Positions 2,853 to 27,130 of a stretch of DNA of 64,000 bases are shown one piece after another. Below the pieces are notes generated by a model that was not told the origin of the DNA, did not search any database, and worked only from the letters and a program-made list of their open reading frames with translations. Each line of letters opens with the position of its first letter. The first letter of the stretch is position 1. This DNA comes from Chloroflexota bacterium (GTDB lineage Bacteria; Chloroflexota; Dehalococcoidia; Lucifugimonadales; JADFKI01). The DNA is taken from contig JAQBUT010000008.1 in the NCBI GenBank assembly GCA_027623195.1, forward strand, positions 31,015 through 95,014. Reading direction: 5' to 3'. The position numbers were made by a program, and so were the translations under genes.

Positions 2853-2929
<77 letters not shown>

Positions 2930-3018
2930 TGCATCTAATCAGTTAGATAGCCCATCCCCCTTTAGCTTCCTTAGTTATGTTAAGGGGAAGATGCTTTCCA
3001 TATAGAGAGGAGTACTCC

Positions 3019-3444
3019 TTGGCAGACCAACCTAGCGAAAAGTCGATGGACCGAATGCGCAAAATGGTTGATAAGTTTTGCGAGAAGTCCGGAACCTTTA
3101 AGCATCCTGGCGAGGGTATCACCGAATCTGTCGTCCTCGGCCTTGCACAGAATATGGACGAACTTGGCAGGCCATTATGTCCCTGTAGGTTCTACCCGGA
3201 CAAGAACGAGGAAGCCAAACATCGCACGTGGATGTGCCCCTGCGATGACATGCAGATATACAAGTACTGCCATTGAATGCTTTTTGTGACGGAAGAGGGT
3301 CTTCCGATAACGGAGCATCTGCCTGAGGATCACGAAGGGCTTCAAATGTACGGTGAGGTGAAAGATCCCACCCCGAACAAGGGCAGGGCATTACGAGATA
3401 AGGCGGAAGAGCGCGAGATAGAACGAAAAGAACGCCCTTCTTAA
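3019..3444 (+). CDS. ftrC: Ferredoxin:thioredoxin reductase catalytic subunit, predicted selenoprotein (Sec at TGA 3274-3276), about 141 aa
   Basis: CPC...CPC...CH(TGA)MLFV matches the FTR CPC/CPC/CHC motifs. The frame stays open for 55 codons after the TGA to TAA 3442-3444. TTG start follows GAGAGGAG. trxA is directly downstream. Confidence 0.9.
3290..3306 (+). promoter_or_regulatory. SECIS-like hairpin in ftrC
   Basis: cggaaga-GGG-tcttccg; the loop starts 20 nt after the UGA. Confidence 0.7.
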
Positions 3445-3483: not shown

Positions 3484-3813
3484 ATGGCAGTACCAATAGC
3501 GGTAACAGACGCAAATTTCGACGAAGAAGTATTACAGTCGGACATCCCCGTTCTGGTGGACTTTTGGGCGGAGTGGTGTGGCCCATGCAAGATGATATCG
3601 CCCGTAGTAGATGAGCTGGCGGAAGAGTATGACGGCAAGGTGAAATTCACCAAAGTCGACGTGGACTCCAATCCCAAGACAGCCATGAATTACGGCATCC
3701 GAGGCATTCCTGCACTGCTTATCTTCGATGGCGGCAAAGTGGCCAAACAGGTCGTTGGCGCTGTGCCTAAGGCCTCCCTGAAGAAAAGTATCGACGAAGC
3801 CATCGGGGGGTAA
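3484..3813 (+). CDS. trxA: Thioredoxin
   Basis: WCGPC active site, 109 aa, GGAGG RBS. Confidence 0.98.
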   Translation: MAVPIAVTDANFDEEVLQSDIPVLVDFWAEWCGPCKMISPVVDELAEEYDGKVKFTKVDVDSNPKTAMNYGIRGIPALLIFDGGKVAKQVVGAVPKASLKKSIDEAIGG

Positions 3814-4412: not shown

Positions 4413-6101
4413 ATGGCCAAGGTAGAAGGCAGCTACTTAGTAGCTAAGGCGATTCAAAATGAGGGCATAACCACGCTTTTCGGGTTACCCGGGGGGCCGG
4501 TGGTGGAGGTAATAGGATTTGCGGCTCAGCTAGGCGTAAGGCCAATTAGCGTAAGGCATGAGCAGGCCGCCGCGCTCTCAGCCGCCGCATACGGCTATGT
4601 CAGGAACGAGGTTGGCGTTTGCGTGCTGGCTGCAGGGCCTGGTGTAACGAACGCTTTGACAGGCGCGCACGTGGCCTTCGACAACGGCCTACCCATAGTG
4701 CTCCTGGGAGGGTCCGGCCCTCAGCATGGGCGTTACTCCGGCACGTTCCAAGAGACAGATAACGTGCCGATGTTCAAGAGTATTACCAAGATGTCGGTTC
4801 AGATAGATAGCGCAGCCCGCATTCCTGAATACATGTCCATGGCGTTCCGGAAGGCCCGAAGCGGCCGTCCTGGACCAGTCTACCTGGACCTTCCTTCAGA
4901 CGTTCTTCAGGCAGAGGTCGAGGAAGATGACGTCAAGTGGCCGGTGAATTATTTCGCGGACGTGCATCCCATGGGCGACGCCAATCAGGTGAAGAAGGCC
5001 GCCGAACTGCTGCTAAACGCTGAAAGGCCGTTGATGATTGTCGGCAAGGGCGTTCGCTGGTCTGAGCCTACTGAAGAGCTCAAGGGTCTGGTTGAGGAAC
5101 TGGGCATGCCTTTCATATCGTCACCAATGGGACGCGGCTTCATTCCGGACGACCATCCCTTGAATGCTGCTGCCGCTCGTAGCACAGCAATCCGAGGTGC
5201 AGATGTTGTTCTTATGGTCGGCGCCAGGATGAACTGGATGTTCGATTTCGGTCGAGGGTTTGCACCCGATGCCAAGATCATCCACGTAGACATCGAGCCG
5301 GGAGAAATCGGTATCAACCGAGCCGTTGAGGTCGGCATTGTAGGCGACGCCAAGGGCGTTCTGCAGCAGATATTGACGGAGATTGATGGCAAGACGGACG
5401 GCATAGCGGATAAGGCCGAAGAAGGGCCGTGGCTAACATCTATCCGCGACAAGGCCGCTTCCAACGGAGCCGCTATCGAGCCCCTTTTGAACTCTGACAG
5501 CGATCCTATCCGCACATTCAGGATGATGAAGGAGATTCGCGACGTCTTCCCCAGGGATACCATCTACTGCGTGGACGGCCAGATGACTTTGGGCACAGGT
5601 CGGCAGGTGCTCCAAAGCTACACACCGGCAAGTCGCCTAAACTCAGGCTCCAATGGCTGCGTGGGCGTGGGAGTGCCCTTCGCTGTTGGCGCCAAGCTTG
5701 GCCGACCGGACGTGCCTGTTGTTAGCATCAACGGCGACTGCGCCTTCGGATTCAACGCCATGGAGATGGAGACGGCGGTACGCCACGGTATTCCCGCGAT
5801 ATTCATCATCAACAACAACTCGGGCATCGTTGGTGGCACTATGGAGGCGAAAATGGGCCTTCCCGAAGGATACGGTGAGAGAGTGGCGACCTATGTTCAG
5901 GACATTCGCTACGACAAGATTATCGAAGCCTTTGGTGGATATGCAGAGAACGTTACCCATCCAGAGGAGCTACGACCTGCCCTGGAGCGGGCGTACGAGG
6001 CGACAAAGGCCGGCAAGGTTGCATGCATTAATGTCATTTCTGAGCATATGGAGATGATGGTCAACACTGCCACACGGGCCAGCGCCCTGATGGGTTACTA
6101 A
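4413..6101 (+). CDS. Thiamine-diphosphate-dependent enzyme (2-hydroxyacyl-CoA lyase / oxalyl-CoA decarboxylase / ALS-like)
   Basis: RHEQAA, GPGxTN, GRPGPVYLDLP, and the ThDP motif GDCAFGF...NN. Confidence 0.9.
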   Translation: MAKVEGSYLVAKAIQNEGITTLFGLPGGPVVEVIGFAAQLGVRPISVRHEQAAALSAAAYGYVRNEVGVCVLAAGPGVTNALTGAHVAFDNGLPIVLLGGSGPQHGRYSGTFQETDNVPMFKSITKMSVQIDSAARIPEYMSMAFRKARSGRPGPVYLDLPSDVLQAEVEEDDVKWPVNYFADVHPMGDANQVKKAAELLLNAERPLMIVGKGVRWSEPTEELKGLVEELGMPFISSPMGRGFIPDDHPLNAAAARSTAIRGADVVLMVGARMNWMFDFGRGFAPDAKIIHVDIEPGEIGINRAVEVGIVGDAKGVLQQILTEIDGKTDGIADKAEEGPWLTSIRDKAASNGAAIEPLLNSDSDPIRTFRMMKEIRDVFPRDTIYCVDGQMTLGTGRQVLQSYTPASRLNSGSNGCVGVGVPFAVGAKLGRPDVPVVSINGDCAFGFNAMEMETAVRHGIPAIFIINNNSGIVGGTMEAKMGLPEGYGERVATYVQDIRYDKIIEAFGGYAENVTHPEELRPALERAYEATKAGKVACINVISEHMEMMVNTATRASALMGY

Positions 6102-7013: not shown

Positions 7014-8306
7014 ATGGCAAAGAAGGTAGGTCAGTATATAGAGCGGCCCGGCAGGCAGCCTGGTGATGCCCCGATCATCATTCCGGTGGCCGAAAGCTTA
7101 ATGACGGAGCCAGGCATCCCAACTCGTGAGCGAGACGTTTCGTTCTTCAGTCGAGAAGACCCAATAGAAAACATGGCTCTTTCTGAGAGCGCCTCGGCTG
7201 AGTGGTCAAGGGAAGAGCGCATCCAGCATTCACCTGAGGCCAACGAATTCTTCGACAAGCATGAGGAGAATATGGGGCCAATTGTAGAGTGGGTGAGGCA
7301 CAGTGGTGACCTTGAGCCCACCGGCTCCCCCTCAGGTGTTGATGTCTCGGAGGCAATTCGAGAGAAGGCCCGAGAGCTTGGCTATGGCGAGGTAGGATTT
7401 ACCCGAAACGACGCACACTACGTTTACCAGAGCCGCAAGCGCCCGCTAAGGAACGACCTGCCGCATGCAATATGTCTTGCGTTGGAACAGGACTATGTTA
7501 AGACGCAGACCATTCCTAGTATGGATGCTGAGGACACCCATTTCGGCACCTATGAAGATCAGGGACCGAAGTCCCAGGAGCTTACCGACTTTATAAGGGA
7601 CCTTGGGTACAGCATTCAGGTCTCTGGTCCTACGTGGCATTACGGGCCTATGATTCCGCTGTTTGTTCAGGCGGGCCTTGGCCAGCTTGGCGCCAACGGC
7701 CAGTTGCTGTCACCTCACTTCGGCTCCCGCGCGCGACTGCAGATCATCTATACCGATGCGAAGGTCACCTACGACGAGCCTATCGACTACGGCATTCACC
7801 AGTTTTGTAACGAGTGCCAGGTATGCGTCAACCGCTGCCCTGGCCGCGCTCTTATGGCCGATAAGGTCTGGTACAGAGGCGTCGAGAAGAACAAGCTGGT
7901 ATTCAAGCGGTGCAGGCCGGTCATGGCCAGGTACCTCGGCTGTGGTGTCTGCATGAAGGTCTGCCCTATCCAGAAGTACGGAATGAAGCCCGTAATGGAA
8001 CATTACGTCGAGACCGATGGCGAAATACTGGGCAAGAATACAGATAACCTTGAAGGCTACTCGTTCCCAGATAAAGGTTACTTCGGTCCAGGTCAGCTTC
8101 CCACATTTGAGCGAACGTTCTTCGATATGCCCAAAGGTCGAGCAGAGGACTGGCTGCTGCTGGAATTCCGCGACAAGCTCTTCGAGAATGCCGCGGCTGA
8201 GGGCAAGGATAAAGAGGATATGTGGACGGAGTTCCGAGAAAAGGTAGAGCAGTCCATGGACCGTCGAGGCATGGCCGTTGATATGGGCATGGATCTGGGG
8301 GTTTAG
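7014..8306 (+). CDS. Reductive dehalogenase / QueG-like cobalamin and 2x[4Fe-4S] protein, no TAT signal
   Basis: AGLGQLGANGQLLSPHFGSRARL...TD, FCNECQVCVNRCP and C...CGVCMKVCP. Confidence 0.8.
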   Translation: MAKKVGQYIERPGRQPGDAPIIIPVAESLMTEPGIPTRERDVSFFSREDPIENMALSESASAEWSREERIQHSPEANEFFDKHEENMGPIVEWVRHSGDLEPTGSPSGVDVSEAIREKARELGYGEVGFTRNDAHYVYQSRKRPLRNDLPHAICLALEQDYVKTQTIPSMDAEDTHFGTYEDQGPKSQELTDFIRDLGYSIQVSGPTWHYGPMIPLFVQAGLGQLGANGQLLSPHFGSRARLQIIYTDAKVTYDEPIDYGIHQFCNECQVCVNRCPGRALMADKVWYRGVEKNKLVFKRCRPVMARYLGCGVCMKVCPIQKYGMKPVMEHYVETDGEILGKNTDNLEGYSFPDKGYFGPGQLPTFERTFFDMPKGRAEDWLLLEFRDKLFENAAAEGKDKEDMWTEFREKVEQSMDRRGMAVDMGMDLGV

Positions 8307-8545: not shown

Positions 8546-10291
8546 ATGTTTCGATTTTCGCCAAATCCCAACAGAGCGCACCTTGTTAACTGGCGCGAGT
8601 GGGGCCTGGAAGCATTCGAGGAGGCCCAGCGACAGGACAAGCTGGTCATGCTCTACCTCGGCGCCTTCTGGTGCGGCTTTTGTCAGCGTATGGACGAGAC
8701 CACGCTGTCCGTTGATGAGACCCAAACTCTGCTAAATGCCTACTTCATTCCAGTGCGCGTAGAGGATGCTCAGAGACCCGATCTCAACGCTCGCTATAGC
8801 CAGAACGGCTGGCCAACCATCGTCTTCATGACTCCACAGGGCGATCATGTGGCCAGTGTGAACTACATGCCGCCCAACGATTTTTGTGATGTTCTGGTTC
8901 GGCTTTACCAGATGTACACGGAGCAAAGGCAGGAGTTGGAGCAATCGCTTGCCGAGGCCAACCAGCAGTCATCCCAGGTTAGCACGACGTCTGAGCCTGC
9001 CAGCCCGCGTTCAGAGTCCGTCGCCGAGATCGCTGAAACGCTCATGGGTTTGGCAGACCCTATCTACGGCGGCTACGGACCGGACCACAAGTTCCTGCAT
9101 CCTGAGGCGCACCAGTTTCTGCTGTCCCGTTACCATGCTACCGGGGACCGTGCCTACGTAAACCATGTGGCCCTGTCTCTGGAGCAAATGAGGCGAAGCC
9201 AGACTCACGATAACCAGGACGGCGGGTTTCACCGCTACTCCTCAAAACGCGATTGGACAGAGCCCCACCAGGAGAAGCTGCTGGCAGACCATGCCGGATT
9301 GTTGAGCACATACCTCCACATGCTCGTCATTACTGGAGAGGCCAGGTACGAAGAAATGGCTCAGGAGATTATCGATTTTCTTGATCGAAGGCTCTCTGAT
9401 GCTGATGGCGTGGCGTTTCTAGGCTGTCAGGACTACGTTCGCGCAGTGACCAGGCGCATCTCCGAAGGCCAGGAGGCAACCCCCCGAGAACCCGGCAGCA
9501 CTTTTTGGATAATCGACGATTGGGTCTACACCGACGCCAACGCCCAGGCAGCCTCCGCCTACCTGCACGCATACCAGATACTTGGCGAATCTCGGCTAAG
9601 GGAAAGAGCTCTCAATGCTTTGGACTTTTTGTGGGAACATTGCCGGGACTCGGAAGGTCGCGTGTGCCACTACTTTGACGGTAGTCCCTACGTTCCGGGT
9701 CTTCTAATCGATAAGACGCATTTGGCCCATGCCAACTTGGATGCCCACGCCGTCACCGGTGAGCCTGGGTATTTGGAACGTGCAACGGCTCTAGGCCAAA
9801 GCATTCTCAGCGAGCACAAGAACCCCGCGGGCGGCTTCTACGACATTAGCGAGAATGGACCGGGACATCTTCGGCACAAGTTGACGTTGCTTACGGAGAA
9901 CGGCCTGGTGGCCTCGCTAATGCTCCGGCTGTCGGATGTCACTAGCGACATCTCTTTTGGCGAGGGCGCGACGTGGGCGCTGGGGGCCTTTACCGATGAC
10001 CTGTCCCCCTACGGAGTATTCGCTTCGGACTTCGGAATGGCCATGGCTGGGTACATGTCCTCTCCCCTCACCGTGACGCTGGAAGCAGCGCCGGGAGACC
10101 CCCAGGCTCGTGTGTTAGCGTTGTCCGCCATGGACCGATTGACTGAACGCCGCGTCACCTGGATTTTTCGACCGCCGGATGAAAAGGCGAAGGCTGCTTT
10201 ATACCTGGAGGATGGCGACTCCAAAGTAGGGCCAATATATGAACCGGCACAGTTAACGCCGGACCTGCTAACGGCGGCCCGTCTGTCTTAA
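8546..10291 (+). CDS. DUF255 / YyaL (SPATA20-like) thioredoxin-domain plus alpha/alpha-barrel protein
   Basis: VNWREWG.EAF..A...DK...WCGFC..MD..T, GWPT.VF.TP, GGFHRYS...W..PH.EKLL.D. Confidence 0.88.
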   Translation: MFRFSPNPNRAHLVNWREWGLEAFEEAQRQDKLVMLYLGAFWCGFCQRMDETTLSVDETQTLLNAYFIPVRVEDAQRPDLNARYSQNGWPTIVFMTPQGDHVASVNYMPPNDFCDVLVRLYQMYTEQRQELEQSLAEANQQSSQVSTTSEPASPRSESVAEIAETLMGLADPIYGGYGPDHKFLHPEAHQFLLSRYHATGDRAYVNHVALSLEQMRRSQTHDNQDGGFHRYSSKRDWTEPHQEKLLADHAGLLSTYLHMLVITGEARYEEMAQEIIDFLDRRLSDADGVAFLGCQDYVRAVTRRISEGQEATPREPGSTFWIIDDWVYTDANAQAASAYLHAYQILGESRLRERALNALDFLWEHCRDSEGRVCHYFDGSPYVPGLLIDKTHLAHANLDAHAVTGEPGYLERATALGQSILSEHKNPAGGFYDISENGPGHLRHKLTLLTENGLVASLMLRLSDVTSDISFGEGATWALGAFTDDLSPYGVFASDFGMAMAGYMSSPLTVTLEAAPGDPQARVLALSAMDRLTERRVTWIFRPPDEKAKAALYLEDGDSKVGPIYEPAQLTPDLLTAARLS

Positions 10292-10327: not shown

Positions 10328-11608
10328 ATGCGTTTGACCTTAGCCCGCCACCCGGTAACGGAGATAAAATTCGGCGACGAGACGTCACTTGATGGAACGG
10401 CGCTGTCGATAAACGAAAGCGAGCTCCGCGCGCTACTGTTGGAGGACCAACGCCTGGAAAGCGTAGGCTTGGACGTCGTGCGTCCGGGAGAGAACTGCCG
10501 GGCAGGGCCTGTCTTCGACATCATAGAGCCCAGGGCCAAGGCGGATGGAGGCAGCCCGGACTTCCCTGGAGTACTGGGGCCATCAGCCATAGCTGGCATT
10601 GGCACGACCCACGTCCTGGAGGGCGCGGCCGTTACGGTGGTGGATTGCCGTCCCACTGTCACAGCGCGTGCGGCCAAGCGCAGCATACTGGAGATGAGTG
10701 GAGAGGGGGCGGCCCGTTCACCCTACTCTGCCCTGCAACACCTGGTTTTGACTCCGCGTTCGAGAGCCGATGTACCGTCCCATTCGGCCCTAAACGCAAC
10801 GCGCATGGCCGGGCTTAAGGCAGCGGTCTACATGGCGCAGGCCGCACGAACCAGGCAGCCCATCACCACCGAGACGCTGGGTCCGATAGGGCCGACGGAA
10901 CCGGGACGCGAGGGCCTGCATCGAGTGGCCTACATCGGACAGATCTACTCCCGGCAGCGCTCTCCGGAGATTGATGAGCATATCTTCTACGGCCTGAACA
11001 CAACTGGCATGTTGCCGGTGCTCACTAACCCCAACGAGTGGTTGGACGGCGCTGTTTTGCCCTCTTATGACACGTCGTTGGGCGGCGCGGAGACGTATTT
11101 TTACCAGAACCATCCTGTGATTACAGACCTCTATCGACGCCACAACGAAGGCGAACTGAACTTTGTCGGCGCAGTCGCGTCCATATCCGGTCTGGACAAC
11201 GAAGACCGGGATCGGTTGTGCCAGGTGGCGGCGCACCTCGTCAAATGGGGACTCAACGCCGATGCGGCGGTACTCACCAAGCACGGCGGTGGAGTGCCCC
11301 ACGCCGACATGGCGCAGACGGCCCGCCTGCTAGAGCGCATGGAGGTCAGCACGGCCGTTATGGTGTCCGATATGTCCAGGGACCGCCGCGTAGAATCCGC
11401 GCTGCTTTTTAACTTCCCCGAGGTGAACGCCATCGTATACTGCGGCGGCGGCGACACAAAGTGGACGGTTCCGGCTGTGGAGCGCATCATCGCGGGCAAT
11501 CCGCAGGTGGAGGAGATGTTGGCACAATCGCAAGAACTCATGGCCTCCAGCATAGCCGGCGTCGTGAATCAGCAGGGCGCCAGCCACGTAAGAGCGATGA
11601 CCTACTAG
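10328..11608 (+). CDS. Glycine/sarcosine/betaine reductase component B alpha/beta subunit (GrdE/GrdG/GrdI family)
   Basis: PGE.CR..PV.DIIEPRAK, G.G.THVLEGAAV, PNEWLDGAV, TY.YQN.PVI..LY..H..ELNFVG; lies directly upstream of grdB. Confidence 0.88.
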   Translation: MRLTLARHPVTEIKFGDETSLDGTALSINESELRALLLEDQRLESVGLDVVRPGENCRAGPVFDIIEPRAKADGGSPDFPGVLGPSAIAGIGTTHVLEGAAVTVVDCRPTVTARAAKRSILEMSGEGAARSPYSALQHLVLTPRSRADVPSHSALNATRMAGLKAAVYMAQAARTRQPITTETLGPIGPTEPGREGLHRVAYIGQIYSRQRSPEIDEHIFYGLNTTGMLPVLTNPNEWLDGAVLPSYDTSLGGAETYFYQNHPVITDLYRRHNEGELNFVGAVASISGLDNEDRDRLCQVAAHLVKWGLNADAAVLTKHGGGVPHADMAQTARLLERMEVSTAVMVSDMSRDRRVESALLFNFPEVNAIVYCGGGDTKWTVPAVERIIAGNPQVEEMLAQSQELMASSIAGVVNQQGASHVRAMTY

Positions 11609-11686
11609 TCGGGTTTGGTGAAAGATATATAATCTTGATACATGCCCTGGCCTGGTTCATATGGTTAATGGGGCAGGAGGAAGAAA

Positions 11687-12970
11687 ATGAAAATAGTCCA
11701 CTACGTCAATCAGTTCTTCGGAGGCATCGGCGCCGAGGAGGAGGCTGGTAGGCCGTTGGAGATCCGGGAGGGCGCTGTTGGACCCGGGCGTCTGTTGGAA
11801 CAGCTATTCGGAGACGGCTCTCAGGTTCTCACGACGTTCGTGTGTGGCGATAACTACGCTGTGGAACAGCAGGACCAACTCATCACCGATGTGTTGAACC
11901 ACCTGCGCGCTTCAGGAGCAGACCTGTTCGTAGCAGGGCCATGCTTCGAGGCGGGACGATACGGCATGGCCGCCGGCGCTCTGTGCTCTGCAGTGCAGGC
12001 CGAGCTTCATATTCCTGCTGTAACGGCTATGGGTGGGGAGAATCCCGGCGTCGACCTGTACCGCGAGGAGCTATTCATCGTGGATTCCGGCGCCAGTGCA
12101 TCGGCCATGAGCCAGGTGGTCACCCGTATGGTGGCGCTGGGCAAGAAGCTAGTAGCCGGTGAAGAGATTGGCACACCTGCCGACGAGGGCTACATTCCCA
12201 GAGGGCTTATTCGGGATGCCTTCGTTGAGCAGAACGCGGGCCAGCGTCTTGTTGCCATGGTCATGGACAAGGTCAATGGCGATCCATTTGAGTCCGAGAT
12301 GATGTCCACCTCATTCGAGCCAATACCCATGCCGGCAGCAGTGGCCGACATATCCAAGGCCCGGGTTATGGTCATTACCGATGGCGGCCTGGTGCCCTCG
12401 GGCAACCCTGACGGCATCGAGGGCATGGCCGCCACCCGCTGGGGAACCTACAGCATTAAAGACAAGGATGGCCTGGACGGCAAAGACTACGAGATCTCCC
12501 ACGGCGGCTACGACCCCAGGTTCGTCGAAGCGGACCCCGACAGGCTTGTGCCTCTAGACGCTCTCCGTCAGATGGAGAAAGAGGGCATCATTGGGGAGTT
12601 GCACAACGAGTTTATTTCCACATCCGGGTTGGCCAATCCTCTCTCCAATACTCGGCGCATGGGCAAGGAGATGGCCCAGAGGGTCAAAGAATTGGGGGTG
12701 GACGCGGTAATCGTCACATCCACCTGAGGCACCAGCACTCGCAGCGGCGCTGCGATAACGACCGAACTGGAGAAGGCTGGCATACCGGTAGTGCAGATTA
12801 CGTCAGCTCTGCCAATAGCCAAGATGGTGGGCTCAAACAGGGTAGTTCTTGGGAACGGGATTGTTCATGTTGCCGGAGACCCCAATCTGCCCGTCAACGA
12901 AGAGAAAGACCTGCGACGCCGACTGGTGCAGAAGGCGCTGGACGCTCTGGAGTCGGAGGCGAAAGAATAA
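11687..12970 (+). CDS. grdB: Glycine/betaine reductase selenoprotein B (Sec at TGA 12725-12727), about 427 aa
   Basis: MKIVHYVNQFFGGIG, GPCFEAGRYG, ENPGV, HGGYD...DPDRLVPLD. VIVTST-TGA-GTSTRSGA...ELEKAGIPVVQI...VGSNR...GDP continues in frame to TAA 12968-12970. Confidence 0.95.
12739..12755 (+). promoter_or_regulatory. SECIS-like hairpin in grdB
   Basis: tcgcagc-GGC-gctgcga; the stem starts 11 nt after the UGA. Confidence 0.7.
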
Positions 12971-13010
12971 CCTGTCGAAAGTCTTATAAGCGACCCGAGG
13001 TGCACCAGAG

Positions 13011-14468
13011 ATGATGGGCATGACATCTCCAGGCAGGTTGCCGGTTATCACAGGCGTGCGACATTTTCTTGCCCATACGCCCGGGTTGGTGCGATATGGA
13101 CACAAGCCGTCGCTGGATATCGCCAGAAACGCGGCCGTCGCAGAGAACATCGCGGGCCACCTGCGAACCTTTTCTGAGGCAGTCGCCTACCCGCCTAATC
13201 GCGCATACCTCGGCTCCATCTACCCTGACCAGCTTCGGGATATTCCCAGGCCCTGGTTCCTGCAAAACGGTCCTGCGGAACGCCGACAGCCTCATGGGGA
13301 CATGATGCCGGAGGAAGAGTTTTACGCCATTTTGAAAATGGCTGACGACTTCGACATCGTCTGGCTGACTGAAGATTTTGTGAAAGAAGCAACGCAGAAT
13401 CTGCAGGATAACCCTCTGATCAGTTCCGCAGACTTGGACAAGCTTACCGATGGCCACCAGCAATCCGGCATAGAGCAACGGATCGCCCAAGAAAGCTCTT
13501 TACCCCTCACTTTGAAGGATGGGCGGCTCATTGGCTGCGTAACTGGGGCTGCGGGCAGCGACGAACTCAACGCCGGGGTGCTGCTGGAGAACCTGGCCTG
13601 TAAAGCCACTGCTGCCATGGCGCTGCGCACGCTACTCCACGATGGTGGCTTCGATGCGACTCAGGTGCAATACATCCTTAATACGGGCGAGGAGGCCGTG
13701 GGCGACTCCTTCCAACGCGGCGGTGGCAACATGGCCAAGGCCGTTGGGGAGTTATGCGGTCTTGCTGGCGCTACCGGCTCCGACGTGAAGGCCTTCTGCT
13801 GCGCGCCCGTGCACGCACTGGCTATCGCTGGTTCTATGGTGACCTCTGGCTTGTATGACCGCGTGGTTGTGATAGGGGGATGCTCGCTGGCCAAGCTGGG
13901 TATGAACTACACCGGCCACCTGGACGCGGACCAGCCGGTGCTCGAAGACGTCCTCGCGGCATTCGCAGTGATGGTCGAGCCTGACGACGGTAAGAGCCCT
14001 GTGATTCGCCTGGACTCGGTCGGAGGGCACAACATCGGGGCCGGTTCGTCGTTGCGTGCCATATCCCGAACCCTCATGACTGATCCCTTGGCGAGGTTGG
14101 GATTTCGCTTCCAGGACATAGATAAATTCGCCATCGAGCTTCAGAACCCGGAGATCACCGAGCCAGCAGGTGGCGGCGACGTAACGGAGCGCAACTACCG
14201 AGTCATAGCGGGGCTGGCCGTTCAGAACCACGAGATTGATAGGTTGGACATACCCACATTCTCGGCACGGCACGGCATGCCTGGCTTCTCGTCGACGCAA
14301 GGGCACATCGCTTCTGCGGTGCCTTTCTTGGGTCACGCTGTGGACCACATTGGCTCTGGTGACATGCAGAGGGCTATGTTCGTGGCGAAGGGAAGCCTGT
14401 TCCTGGGCCGCATGACGCAAATGTCGGATGGTTTCTCTTTTATACTGGAGCGCAACCCTGCCCGCTAA
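13011..14468 (+). CDS. grdC: Glycine reductase component C beta subunit (FabH/thiolase-like); exact start uncertain
   Basis: EEAVGD..QRGGGNMAKA, ATGSDVKAFC..P.HAL, LAKLGMN, NPEIT.PAG.GDV...NY, HGMPGF..TQGHI.S, KGSLFLGRMT. Confidence 0.93.
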   Translation: MMGMTSPGRLPVITGVRHFLAHTPGLVRYGHKPSLDIARNAAVAENIAGHLRTFSEAVAYPPNRAYLGSIYPDQLRDIPRPWFLQNGPAERRQPHGDMMPEEEFYAILKMADDFDIVWLTEDFVKEATQNLQDNPLISSADLDKLTDGHQQSGIEQRIAQESSLPLTLKDGRLIGCVTGAAGSDELNAGVLLENLACKATAAMALRTLLHDGGFDATQVQYILNTGEEAVGDSFQRGGGNMAKAVGELCGLAGATGSDVKAFCCAPVHALAIAGSMVTSGLYDRVVVIGGCSLAKLGMNYTGHLDADQPVLEDVLAAFAVMVEPDDGKSPVIRLDSVGGHNIGAGSSLRAISRTLMTDPLARLGFRFQDIDKFAIELQNPEITEPAGGGDVTERNYRVIAGLAVQNHEIDRLDIPTFSARHGMPGFSSTQGHIASAVPFLGHAVDHIGSGDMQRAMFVAKGSLFLGRMTQMSDGFSFILERNPAR

Positions 14469-14540
14469 AGATGCACAACATGCAATAATGGGGCCTGCTT
14501 TAACAGGTCTGGAATTTGGTGAACCACGGAGGCCAATGGA

Positions 14541-15011
14541 ATGGATTTGAAGGGGAAGAAGGTCATAGCCCTGGGAGAGAGGGATGGCGTTCAGAGCGGT
14601 TCTATTGTCGAATGTGTTAAGAGCGCCGGGGCCGAAGTGGTGATGGAGTTCACTGCCTGTTTCGTCTGAACGTCCGCTGGTGCGCTTGACCTGGAGGGTC
14701 AAGAGATGATCAAGAGGGCGGCAGATCGGGTCGGCACCGAAGACCTCGTCGTAGTGTTGGGCACTCCCACCGCTAACAGCAGCAAGCTTTTCGCCATGAC
14801 AGTCACGGAAGGCGATCCCACATGGGCTGGTCCTTTGGCCGGCGCTGGGTTAGGTATCCCCGCCTACCATGTCATGGAAGACGAGATCAAATCTCAGGTA
14901 GACGAATCGGTTTACGAGGACGAGGTTGGTCTAACCGAAATGACTATTGAGAACCCTGACGAAATTCTCGCAGCCGTCAAAGCGGTGCGGGAGAGCAACG
15001 GCTTAGCCTAG
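14541..15011 (+). CDS. grdA: Glycine reductase selenoprotein A (Sec at TGA 14667-14669), 156 aa
   Basis: MDLKGKKVIALGERDGV...TACFV-TGA-TSAGALDLE..., in frame with track ORF 14706-15011 (TVTEGDPTWAGPLAG). CxxU motif, GGAGG RBS. Confidence 0.96.
14685..14703 (+). promoter_or_regulatory. SECIS-like hairpin in grdA
   Basis: cttgacct-GGA-gggtcaag; the loop starts 23 nt after the UGA. Confidence 0.7.
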
Positions 15012-25094: not shown

Positions 25095-26459
25095 TTAGCT
25101 CTCGTTCGCGAGTGCGGCGTTAACGGCATTCGCGGCCTGGGGTGTTATCCAGCTCTCCCAAACATCATTGTTATTCAGGAACCAGACAGCGGCTTCGGAT
25201 GCCTCGCTGCCGGGGTTGGCGTCCATCCACTGGAAGATGCCTTTGTACAGGTCTATGGTGAATTCCCAGTTCTGAAGCATCGCGATAACATCGGGTGCGC
25301 GAGGCAGCAGACTCTGGTTGACTGCCACCAGCACCAGCGATTCAGAGAATGCGCGGCCCTTGTCTGTGTCCCAGCATTCCGTGCTAAATGGGGGCTCTTC
25401 CAGCCGGACCAGGTCCAGCTTCAAGGCGGGGTCGCCGGTGCCCCACATGTAGCCCAGCCACGGCTCTTCCTTATCGTAAGCAGTGTAAAGGTCGGCGAAC
25501 ATGGCCTCTTGAGAGCCTGGATTGATCACGTGAAGAGAGTCGATGAGGCCGTACGTCTCTATTTGCGCTGTGTTTACGCCCTCACATGACCAGCCAATGA
25601 CACACGACACGTGACGTGCCTTGCCTCGACTATCGTCCGTAGAGAAAAGTTCCTGGTACTCTGCTTTCGCCAGGTCCTGGGGCGTCTTGAGGTCCGGGTA
25701 CTCGTCCGCGAGGTACTGGGGTATGACGAACGTGCTTTGCCAGTCGCCAACCAGGCTTGTGCCTACTGAGACGACCTCACCCAGCTCTACTGCTTTTTCC
25801 TAGCCGATGGACTGGTTGGGTAGCCATATCTCCAGGGCAACATCGATGTCACCCTTCTGCAGTCCCTGGAAGTTGGGCAGTGTGCCTCCGAAGATGGTGT
25901 CTGTGGGGTATCCGTATCCATTCTCGATAATATACTGCGCGATGCGGTTCTGCACCTGCGCGCTGGTCCAGTTAAGGTCGGAGAAGACGATCGTATCCTT
26001 GGCAGGCTATCCTGCAGCTAAGGCCTCGTCGAGAATTTCCTGGATCTCCATAGCCGTAAGGGAGTTTGAAGCCGCATCCATGACTGCGGATGATACGGCA
26101 GCCTCCACGTCTTGGATCGTAACGGCGTTAGCCTGGGCCTCCATGACCGCACGGTCGATTGCCGTCTGAACGTCCGCGGCTGTGACGGCGCCGGACGTGG
26201 CGGAGTCCACTGCGGCCCGGATATCTGCGGCGGTAACGCCACCAGACGCGGCCGAATCTATCATCGCCTGAATCTCTGCGGCTGTTATCTGGGGTTGCGC
26301 GGCGGGCTGCGACTGGGCTACGGCATCCGCCACAATCTTGCTAAGCTGGGCCTCGTCAATGGCTGGCGCAGCTGATGAGCAGGCCACCGCTGCCAGGGCA
26401 AATATGGCTAGCAGCACACCTACTATTGTGAACCTCTTGGTCGAAATGCGACCTAACAT
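25095..26459 (-). pseudogene. Glycine-betaine ABC substrate-binding lipoprotein (ProX/OpuAC-like) with two in-frame TAG stops
   Basis: One continuous frame: lipobox AVAC, Ala-rich stalk, TAG (26007-9), PAKDTIVFSDLNWTSAQVQN...EIWLPNQSIG, TAG (25800-2), EKAV...CVIGWSCE...PWLGYMW. No frameshift. Confidence 0.85.
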
Positions 26460-26608
26460 ATGTTCTCCTCCCAATTAATAATTTTCGTTGTCTAGTGAGT
26501 TAGCTTTTACGTATTTGCTCTCGCTCGACCCCCTCTACGACAGTTGCCCTCGCATAATCACGCCTCAATGCTTCCAACGGATTCAAAGGCACTGCAAGCA
26601 TAAATGTG

Positions 26609-27013
26609 CTATTCCCCTGTCAGCGCGCGTTGGCGCTCGCGGGCTACCGACTGGGTGACGCGGTCAATTATGATTGCTATCGCGACGATAGCCAGGCCCG
26701 CGATTAAGCTATTGCCGGCCTCCCCCCTACCCATCGCACGCAGCACGGCCTCGCCCAGGCCACCCGCGCCCACCAGGGAGGCGACCACTACCATGGCCAG
26801 CGCCATCATGATCGTCTGGTTTATGCCCGCCATGATGGTTGGCAAGGCCATTGGCACCTGCACTTTTGTTAGCATTTGGATTGGCGTTGTCCCGAAGGAG
26901 CGGGCCGCTTCCACGGCCTCGGGTGAGACTTGTCTTATGCCCAGATTGGTGAGCCGAATCACTGGAGCAACCGCGTAGATAACCGTGGCCATCACGGCCG
27001 GCACGTTACCCAG
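26609..27013 (-). pseudogene. 3' remnant of glycine-betaine ABC permease (ProW/OpuAB)
   Basis: [25 protein letters not shown]...EAARSFG...[30 protein letters not shown]; the N-terminal half is missing. Confidence 0.85.
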
Positions 27014-27130
27014 GCGCTGCTTCGGAACCCTCAACAGACGGTTGGCCTTGGCCTCCTCATCCGCGAACGCCGTATTCAGCATCTCGGTGTCTATAGGTCC
27101 GGGATGCACCGAATTGCAGCGTATGTCGTT
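27008..27130 (-). pseudogene. Fragment of a short-chain dehydrogenase (C-terminal part) fused in frame to the ProW remnant
   Basis: [17 protein letters not shown]...RVP..RLG is the classical SDR C-terminal motif; TAA lies immediately upstream (27131-27133). Confidence 0.8.

Follow-up and report, generated by a model that had tools for sequence, protein, structure and literature searches.

The 64,000-nt stretch of DNA analyzed here (hereafter, the window), which comes from a Chloroflexota bacterium (JADFKI01; assembly GCA_027623195.1, contig JAQBUT010000008.1, positions 31,015-95,014, forward strand), very probably includes a genuine selenoprotein gene, encoding a selenocysteine (Sec) form of the catalytic subunit of ferredoxin:thioredoxin reductase (FTR). 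The textbook example of disulfide cleavage by an iron-sulfur cluster, which proceeds through a cluster-bound thiolate, is FTR. Sec-containing FTR is a kind of protein already known from sequence; the form described here, with a single predicted Sec at the cluster-facing position, recurs in marine Dehalococcoidia. Decoding of the in-frame TGA of this gene as Sec is strongly supported by sequence comparison, specifically by the recurrence of TGA in orthologues, by a hairpin specific to the TGA forms, by tRNA-Sec genes that neighbor some of these orthologues, and by the presence of grdA and grdB in the window. The features discussed below are collected in Table 1.

Table 1. Location of the FTR gene and associated features in the window.
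Feature	Position	Strand	Details
tRNA-Val(GAC)	2853..2929	+	directly upstream of FTR; same arrangement in loci L004 and L013
Ribosome-binding site GAGAGGAG	3005..3012	+	6 nt ahead of the TTG start; read from the sequence
FTR catalytic-subunit gene	3019..3444	+	141 codons, one in-frame TGA; PF02943 (88.9 bits), PDB chains, Foldseek
TGA predicted to be read as Sec (U86)	3274..3276	+	equivalent to Cys87 of Synechocystis FTR; Cys in homologues, TGA in related loci
SECIS-type stem-loop	3277..3318	+	apical stem 3290-3296/3300-3306, loop GGG 3297-3299, lower stem 3277-3287/3310-3318
Thioredoxin gene (WCGPC)	3484..3813	+	39 nt downstream of FTR; PF00085 (124.6 bits)
GrdB/F/H-family selenoprotein B gene	11687..12970	+	in-frame TGA 12725-12727 (U347); TIGR01918
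GrdA selenoprotein A gene	14541..15011	+	in-frame TGA 14667-14669, CFVU motif (U43)

Family, active site and C-terminal tail of the FTR product

The reading frame begins with TTG at 3019, a start that agrees with the N-termini of 141-aa homologues covering 100% of the query, and ends with TAA at 3442-3444. Its translation reads LCPC (54, 56)-X16-MCPC (73, 75)-X8-YCH-TGA-MLFVTEEG...ERPS, with 55 sense codons beyond the TGA, which bears out the motifs and the open downstream frame on which the original prediction was based. The frame contains only one TGA, and its first motif is CPC; both hold for all 16 related TGA loci described below as well. By Pfam family and predicted fold, the gene is that of an FTR catalytic subunit. 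The product scored 88.9 bits against PF02943 (FeThRed_B; threshold 22), with residues 10-94 corresponding to profile positions 2-90 of 106, and it matched the FTR catalytic chains of Arabidopsis and Synechocystis in the PDB with E values of 6.7e-25 to 4.4e-20. An AlphaFold2 model, for which 32 sequences were used (31 of 120 listed homologues plus the query), reached moderate quality, with a mean pLDDT of 74.7 and values of 54-67 near the cluster motifs; when this model was used as a Foldseek query, the best 10 matches were all FTR catalytic chains, each with a probability of 1.00, and target-normalized TM-scores were 0.58-0.63 to 7bzk_A, 1dj7_A and others.

The spacing of the six-cysteine signature of the family (CPC-X16-CPC-X8-CHC) is exactly preserved, with five cysteines in place and the TGA at the sixth position. 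Query residues 3-93 align with residues 4-94 of 1dj7_A, and in this register U86 corresponds to Cys87, C56 to Cys57, and C54, C73, C75 and C84 to Cys55, Cys74, Cys76 and Cys85, which we take to be the ligands of the [4Fe-4S] cluster. Dai et al. (2000/2007) reportedly found that Cys57 and Cys87 form the redox disulfide, with Cys57 exposed and Cys87 adjoining the cluster, and that Cys87 binds the cluster in a one-electron intermediate. The placement of Sec at the last cysteine of CHC, the cluster-interacting member of the redox pair, as originally proposed, therefore agrees with the alignment of the TGA with Cys87 of 1DJ7 chain A, and this positional equivalence suggests that Fe-Se chemistry may occur at the cluster.

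With regard to the C-terminal part of the protein, the Pfam match ends at residue 94, so that the first ~8 residues after the TGA still lie inside the domain, and solved catalytic chains extend ~15-25 residues past the aligned part. In the tail proper, a short helix is predicted with low confidence at residues 126-138 (block mean pLDDT 65-67; 50 at the final residue). This tail is common to all 120 homologues among the matches listed, and the extension of ~50 aa is thus a family trait of Cys and Sec forms alike. The suggestion that the extension may substitute for the variable subunit (FTRV) found no support, as Cys forms carry the tail just as Sec forms do; a role of the tail as a variable-subunit mimic was also rejected because Foldseek gave no significant match to the variable chain (7c3f_V, E = 3.6). 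By contrast, the statement that no variable-subunit gene is adjacent held up: the neighbors are a tRNA-Val and a thioredoxin gene, and no FTRV partner was found among the genes adjoining the window FTR. Clustering of the flanks of 37 related loci likewise yielded no conserved neighbor, beyond subclades, that could be a candidate partner subunit. According to a review (PMC9025218), FTRV is exclusive to oxygenic phototrophs, and its absence here is thus expected.

Recurrence of the TGA codon in related loci

A protein search returned 1736 matches at E <= 0.001 among 1737 candidates. The best 120 of these 1736 homologues are 72-84% identical to the query, are 140-167 aa long, and carry SAR202 or Chloroflexi FTR names where they are named. 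CHC is found in all 120, which places a cysteine opposite the TGA, and the sequence downstream of the TGA is conserved, as one would expect if the original prediction were correct; the full motif pattern is found in 119, the remaining one (P0106) having an altered first motif and an intact CHC. The closest protein match among those listed (84% identity) is a Cys form.

Related loci were collected from one genome per species with peptide patterns none of which spans the Sec codon; 38 of 94 candidate stretches were confirmed, and one of these (L038), which ends at ...YCH and is hence uninformative, was left out. The 38 loci come mostly from Dehalococcoidia/SAR202 MAGs, with three from Acidobacteriota bins and one on a contig of a Scalindua bin. 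At the aligned codon, TGA was found in 16 of the 37 informative loci, and the 21 Cys loci carry TGC (16 loci) or TGT (5 loci); since two TGA loci (L017 and L019) belong to the same MAG, the 16 TGA loci represent 15 genomes. In all 16, a further 55 conserved codons follow in frame and end with ...RPS-stop. When the 16 loci and the window (17 TGA sequences) were compared in pairs, differences at the first, second and third codon positions were 0.189, 0.127 and 0.524 downstream of the TGA and 0.165, 0.095 and 0.471 upstream; this similar, third-position-biased divergence indicates that coding constraint acts alike on the regions before and after the TGA. In a maximum likelihood tree of 38 proteins, built with the Sec position masked as X, parsimony gives five Cys/Sec changes, at least three of which are forced by well-supported branches, and the window FTR occupies its own branch.

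The codon that follows the Sec position is ATG in the window (3277-3279) and in L007, L021, L025, L026 and L028, and it specifies Leu in the other 11 TGA loci (CTG or CTA) and in 119/119 Cys homologues examined; the ATG may reflect a context effect on UGA decoding or a structural adjustment. L017 and L019, which are two contigs of one MAG, carry nearly identical TGA-form FTR genes, representing either gene duplication or strain mixing. Three loci with the same 141-aa FTR type in its Cys form (L034, L036 and L037) lie in Acidobacteriota/Vicinamibacteria bins and, together with the L038 fragment in the Scalindua bin, point to cross-phylum transfer or binning errors.

Gene callers split TGA-form FTR genes into pieces of 73-85 aa and 55 aa. 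Among database proteins of 30-76 aa, 53 pieces were found, including five that end exactly at ...YKYCH and four (besides the window's own) that begin right after the TGA position; three of these four are 55-aa ORFs that start with MLFVTEEG, at the same Met as the post-TGA piece of the window, to which they show 85-89% identity. Five further short proteins, outside the counting rule, start with MLFC..., and most of the remaining pieces are partial Cys-form ORFs. As these genes are cut up and NCBIfam holds no model covering the single-Sec form of FTR, selenoprotein use in marine Dehalococcoidia is under-counted.

SECIS-type hairpin and the context for selenocysteine decoding

The hairpin that was originally noted directly after the TGA is present in the form of a 7-bp apical stem capped by a GGG loop 20 nt past the TGA. 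The fold of positions 3274-3325 has an energy of -15.4 kcal/mol and a z-score of -2.0, with 8 of 200 shuffled sequences equally stable; as this single fold is only modestly unusual, the case for the hairpin is made by its relatives. Published constraints on bacterial SECIS (bSECIS) elements, as given in PMC13188914, comprise a loop of 3-9 nt with G in the first two loop positions, an upper stem of 4-16 bp, a spacing of 16-37 nt from the UGA, and a minimum free energy (MFE) of <= -7.5 kcal/mol, and the window hairpin, with its loop, stem length, spacing and energy, lies within all four. An Rfam search at gathering thresholds returned only two tRNAs and no SECIS family.

An invariant Gly codon (GGN; alignment columns 25-27) sits 21 nt past the TGA in all sequences, and in the TGA forms its GG caps a hairpin because the codons flanking this Gly are mutually complementary. 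Five versions of the stem occur, namely GGCA/UGCC, GGAA/UUCC, GGAC/GUCC, GGGC/GCCC and, in the window, CGGAAGA/UCUUCCG; the window stem (7 bp) is the longest GGN-capped stem of the 38 sequences compared, and its register differs from that of the other TGA forms. Since the apical stem occurs in three registers (with tri-, tetra- and penta-loops), which one consensus fits only in part, sequences were scored singly. A GG-enclosing stem of at least 4 bp was found in 16/17 TGA forms and in 2/21 Cys forms (L004 and L005), and the mean energy of columns 13-40 with GG unpaired was -8.3 kcal/mol for the 17 TGA forms as compared to -1.8 kcal/mol for the 21 Cys forms; Mann-Whitney tests gave p ~1e-7 for both stem length and energy, a value that is not a true probability, as the sequences are related and comparisons between TGA and Cys forms are not phylogenetically independent. 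The MFE of the whole 60 nt did not separate TGA forms from Cys forms. One of the two Cys exceptions, L004 (TGT), retains a 4-bp GGN-capped hairpin (GGAG/CUUC), which could be left over from a recent reversion of Sec to Cys or could represent a pre-SECIS state.

An RNAalifold consensus contains 11 pairs in the TGA forms and two in the Cys forms. For the 11-pair structure, 94.5% of cells are paired in the TGA forms (a value reached by 0/500 shuffles) and 78.6% in the Cys forms, and the pairs that differ between the two groups are 15/36, 18/34, 19/33 and 21/32; columns 15/36 covary at two synonymous third positions, with U-A in eight rows and G-C in six. Only the apical part of the hairpin thus discriminates TGA from Cys forms. 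The lower stem (columns 10-16/35-42; window 3283-3289/3308-3315) is largely paired in Cys forms as well, and it is supplied largely by coding constraint in both groups because the codons for FV and ITE are complementary. This coding-supplied lower stem may explain the recurrent switching between Cys and Sec in the SAR202-type FTR family.

With regard to Sec-decoding machinery, ARAGORN identified a tRNA-SeC(TCA) gene 4-5.5 kb upstream of FTR in 6 of the 16 TGA loci and in 0 of the 21 Cys loci. In these six loci (L006 [4878-4974, - strand], L010, L018, L020, L022 and L023), the tRNA-SeC gene adjoins a thioredoxin homologue that is 54-56% identical to the window thioredoxin; no sel genes were found among 10 ORFs flanking the tRNA-SeC gene of L006. 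The 64-kb window itself contains no tRNA-Sec gene, and no sel gene was found among the 45 window ORFs scanned. The window does contain two further genes with in-frame TGAs that look like Sec codons. The selenoprotein B product scores 368.8 bits against TIGR01918 (cut-off 65.45), with a match that stops at model position 345 of 431, exactly at the TGA, and read-through adds 80 further residues; the post-TGA piece of grdA matches model positions 55-149 of 151 of NF040748. Both genes have hairpins past their TGAs, with a GGC loop at 18 nt in grdB and a GGA loop at 23 nt in grdA. The in-frame TGA of the selenoprotein B gene suggests that the window organism decodes Sec.

Three other readings of the FTR TGA were weighed, each of which we consider very improbable. 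The first, and the best placed of the three, is that of a nonsense allele, or of a TGY codon miscalled as TGA, the gene then being a pseudogene or in truth encoding CHC. One base turns TGC or TGT into TGA, fragmentary ProW/ProX-like ORFs show that some genes in the window are broken, and L004, the locus closest to the window in gene order (RpoC 84% and thioredoxin 86% identical), carries TGT. As this locus and the closest protein match among those listed are both Cys forms, the set offers no close DNA relative with TGA for the window Sec lineage. TGA at 16/37 loci and conservation downstream nevertheless speak clearly against an isolated nonsense allele. A fresh error would not create the longest GGN-capped stem of 38 sequences; moreover, the ATG after the TGA is shared with five other TGA loci at a position that is Leu in the Cys forms, the 85-89% identical 55-aa ORFs with the same starting Met lie on other contigs, and the two other TGA-containing selenoprotein genes are located 9-11 kb away.

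Slightly less probable still is read-through of the UGA by a near-cognate tRNA (Cys or Trp), with the hairpin serving only to stimulate read-through. The identity of the inserted residue is not decidable from sequence alone, and none of the window ORFs scanned is a sel gene; Sec insertion is nevertheless favored by a hairpin that agrees with the bSECIS constraints and resembles the GG-loop hairpins of grdA and grdB in loop type and spacing (18-23 nt), and by selC genes that neighbor six TGA orthologues but none of the 21 Cys loci. The least probable of the three is a split gene, in which termination at the UGA is followed by reinitiation at the overlapping AUG (UGAAUG), with chains of 85 aa and 55 aa assembling without a sixth cysteine. 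While the ATG found in the window and five related loci and the deposition of the 55-aa piece as a separate ORF by gene callers are compatible with such an arrangement, the TGA is followed in 11 of the 16 related loci by CTG or CTA, a poor restart codon, the stop would fall exactly at the codon of the invariant catalytic cysteine, a SECIS-type hairpin accompanies the TGA, tRNA-Sec genes lie near FTR in six loci, and the product would miss half of the redox pair. General reassignment of TGA (table 4 or 25) was rejected, as TGA ends 7 of 47 long window ORFs and only three in-frame TGAs look coding; in the related loci, 7 of the 16 TGA-form FTR genes likewise end at a genuine TGA stop. A single Sec encoded by the in-frame TGA is the reading that we adopt in what follows.

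Relation to known systems, proposed mechanism and gene neighborhood

Cyanobacterial and plant FtrC (1DJ7, 2PVO and 7BZK) and the window protein share the Pfam family, the CPC-X16-CPC-X8-CHx spacing, the predicted fold, and ~40% identity over ~90 residues, with active-site residues in register; the thioredoxin gene adjacent to the window FTR may be counted as a further likeness. The window protein differs from these in the predicted Sec in place of Cys87, in the lack of a variable subunit, and in ~30 extra charged C-terminal residues with a conserved ending (...KAEEREIERKERPS). Cys-type FTR of SAR202/Dehalococcoidia (e.g., P0062 from SAR202 cluster bacterium Io17-Chloro-G9) are true orthologues, with 72-84% identity over 141 residues and the same tail, but have Cys instead of Sec, Leu as the next residue (119/119), and no apical part of the hairpin. 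Two ferredoxin-dependent disulfide reductases of anaerobes, the Methanosarcina acetivorans FDR (4TPU) and the Desulfotalea Grx-FDR (7PWE), are alike in having a non-photosynthetic FTR-like catalytic domain and no variable subunit; these proteins, however, are much less similar to the window protein (E = 1.8e-9 and 6.6e-4, respectively), are rubredoxin or glutaredoxin fusions, and are all Cys forms.

The original statement that Sec-FTR had appeared in metagenomic surveys proved correct as to the protein family, which was reported from the GOS data in 2008, but the form reported there belongs to a different, two-Sec subfamily. In that study (Zhang & Gladyshev, PMC2398784), two reads with Sec-FTR homologues are described, one with Sec at both redox-active positions, and the supplement contains one complete GOS translation, a protein of ~100 aa with CPU...CPC...CIU. 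Reviews of 2022 and 2026 (PMC9312934 and PMC13188914) give the family motif as CxU, with two Sec and NF041072 specified in the latter. NF041072, named "FtrB family double-selenoprotein", resembles the window protein in the predicted Sec at the last cysteine of the third motif and in being known from sequence alone; it is, however, a shorter family (121-position profile) with CPU...CPC...CIU and Sec at both redox-active positions, as compared to CPC...CPC...CHU, a single Sec and a longer tail in the window protein. As the window protein scores 50 bits against NF041072, well below its 160-bit cut-off, it appears to be a single-Sec variant within the SAR202-type FTR family. Full-text literature searches, which covered the text of non-subscription papers, returned no description of a single-Sec 141-aa FTR and, in line with what had been claimed, no biochemical study of Sec-FTR; full-text literature searches also returned no paper on SAR202 selenoproteins, and the titles listed for Dehalococcoidia selenocysteine literature included nothing on FTR.

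We propose that the stem-loop just after the UGA would recruit SelB and Sec-tRNA(Sec) during translation, leading to insertion of Sec at position 86. The four cluster-ligand cysteines (C54, C73, C75 and C84) and the exposed active-site C56 would be kept, and Sec would take the place of the buried partner that adjoins the [4Fe-4S] cluster. If the catalytic cycle resembles that of the cyanobacterial enzyme, C56 and U86 would be joined by a selenenylsulfide in the resting state; a first ferredoxin electron would break this bond, allowing C56 to attack the thioredoxin disulfide while the selenolate sits on cluster iron, and once a second electron arrives the mixed disulfide would be resolved by the selenolate, freeing reduced thioredoxin. 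Because the host is a non-photosynthetic Dehalococcoidia-type organism, the electron donor cannot be a photosystem I ferredoxin.

The likely substrate of the predicted reductase is the product of the neighboring thioredoxin gene, which scores 133.6 bits against TIGR01068 (cut-off 96.8) and has its own GGAGG; no terminator-like site was found on the + strand between the two genes, which are likely co-transcribed. This thioredoxin could in turn supply the Sec-dependent reductase of the glycine/sarcosine/betaine type whose genes lie 7 kb downstream. Among the related loci, adjacency of FTR and thioredoxin genes is found only in the window and L004, with neighbors elsewhere differing by subclade, and the order rpoC/tRNA-Val/FTR/Trx/tRNA-Asp is common only to these two (FTR at 10001-10423 in L004); a link from FTR through thioredoxin to grd is thus suggested for the window genome only.

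Tentatively, these elements may be combined into the possibility of a natural single-Sec SAR202-type FTR in which selenium, in place of sulfur, binds transiently to the unique iron of the [4Fe-4S] cluster and pairs with Cys56 in a selenenylsulfide, in a family that has toggled at least three times between Cys and Sec, eased by the coding-supplied lower half of the SECIS element; in this organism, such an enzyme might form part of an all-selenium chain from ferredoxin through Sec-FTR, thioredoxin and Sec-GrdA to Sec-GrdB. If such a chain exists, an abundant lineage of the deep ocean would depend on selenium supply in both its redox and its osmolyte metabolism. Selenium at the cluster-bound position would furthermore make the intermediate accessible to spectroscopy (Se K-edge, 77Se), and a Sec-FTR would allow for testing what Sec contributes at a resolving, metal-contacting residue rather than at an attacking one; since close Cys and Sec orthologues coexist, natural matched pairs are available for kinetic comparison.

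Three further observations concern the surroundings of these genes. The grd cluster (10328-15011, + strand) consists of a GrdG-like gene (10328) followed by genes for selenoprotein B, component C beta and selenoprotein A; it is of the glycine/sarcosine/betaine reductase type, and the best B-subunit models (GrdF, GrdH and GrdB) all score below their own cut-offs. Near this cluster, three ORFs at 25095-27109 (- strand) match parts of ProX (model positions 155-323 of 331) and ProW (206-333 of 356), and these ORFs of a glycine-betaine ABC transporter look broken or fragmentary. Between the FTR-thioredoxin pair and the grd cluster lies a gene for a reductive-dehalogenase-like protein (7014-8306, + strand) with two 4Fe-4S motifs and a TIGR02486 score of 104 bits (cut-off 160), which is followed by a gene for a DUF255 thioredoxin-domain protein (8546-10291).
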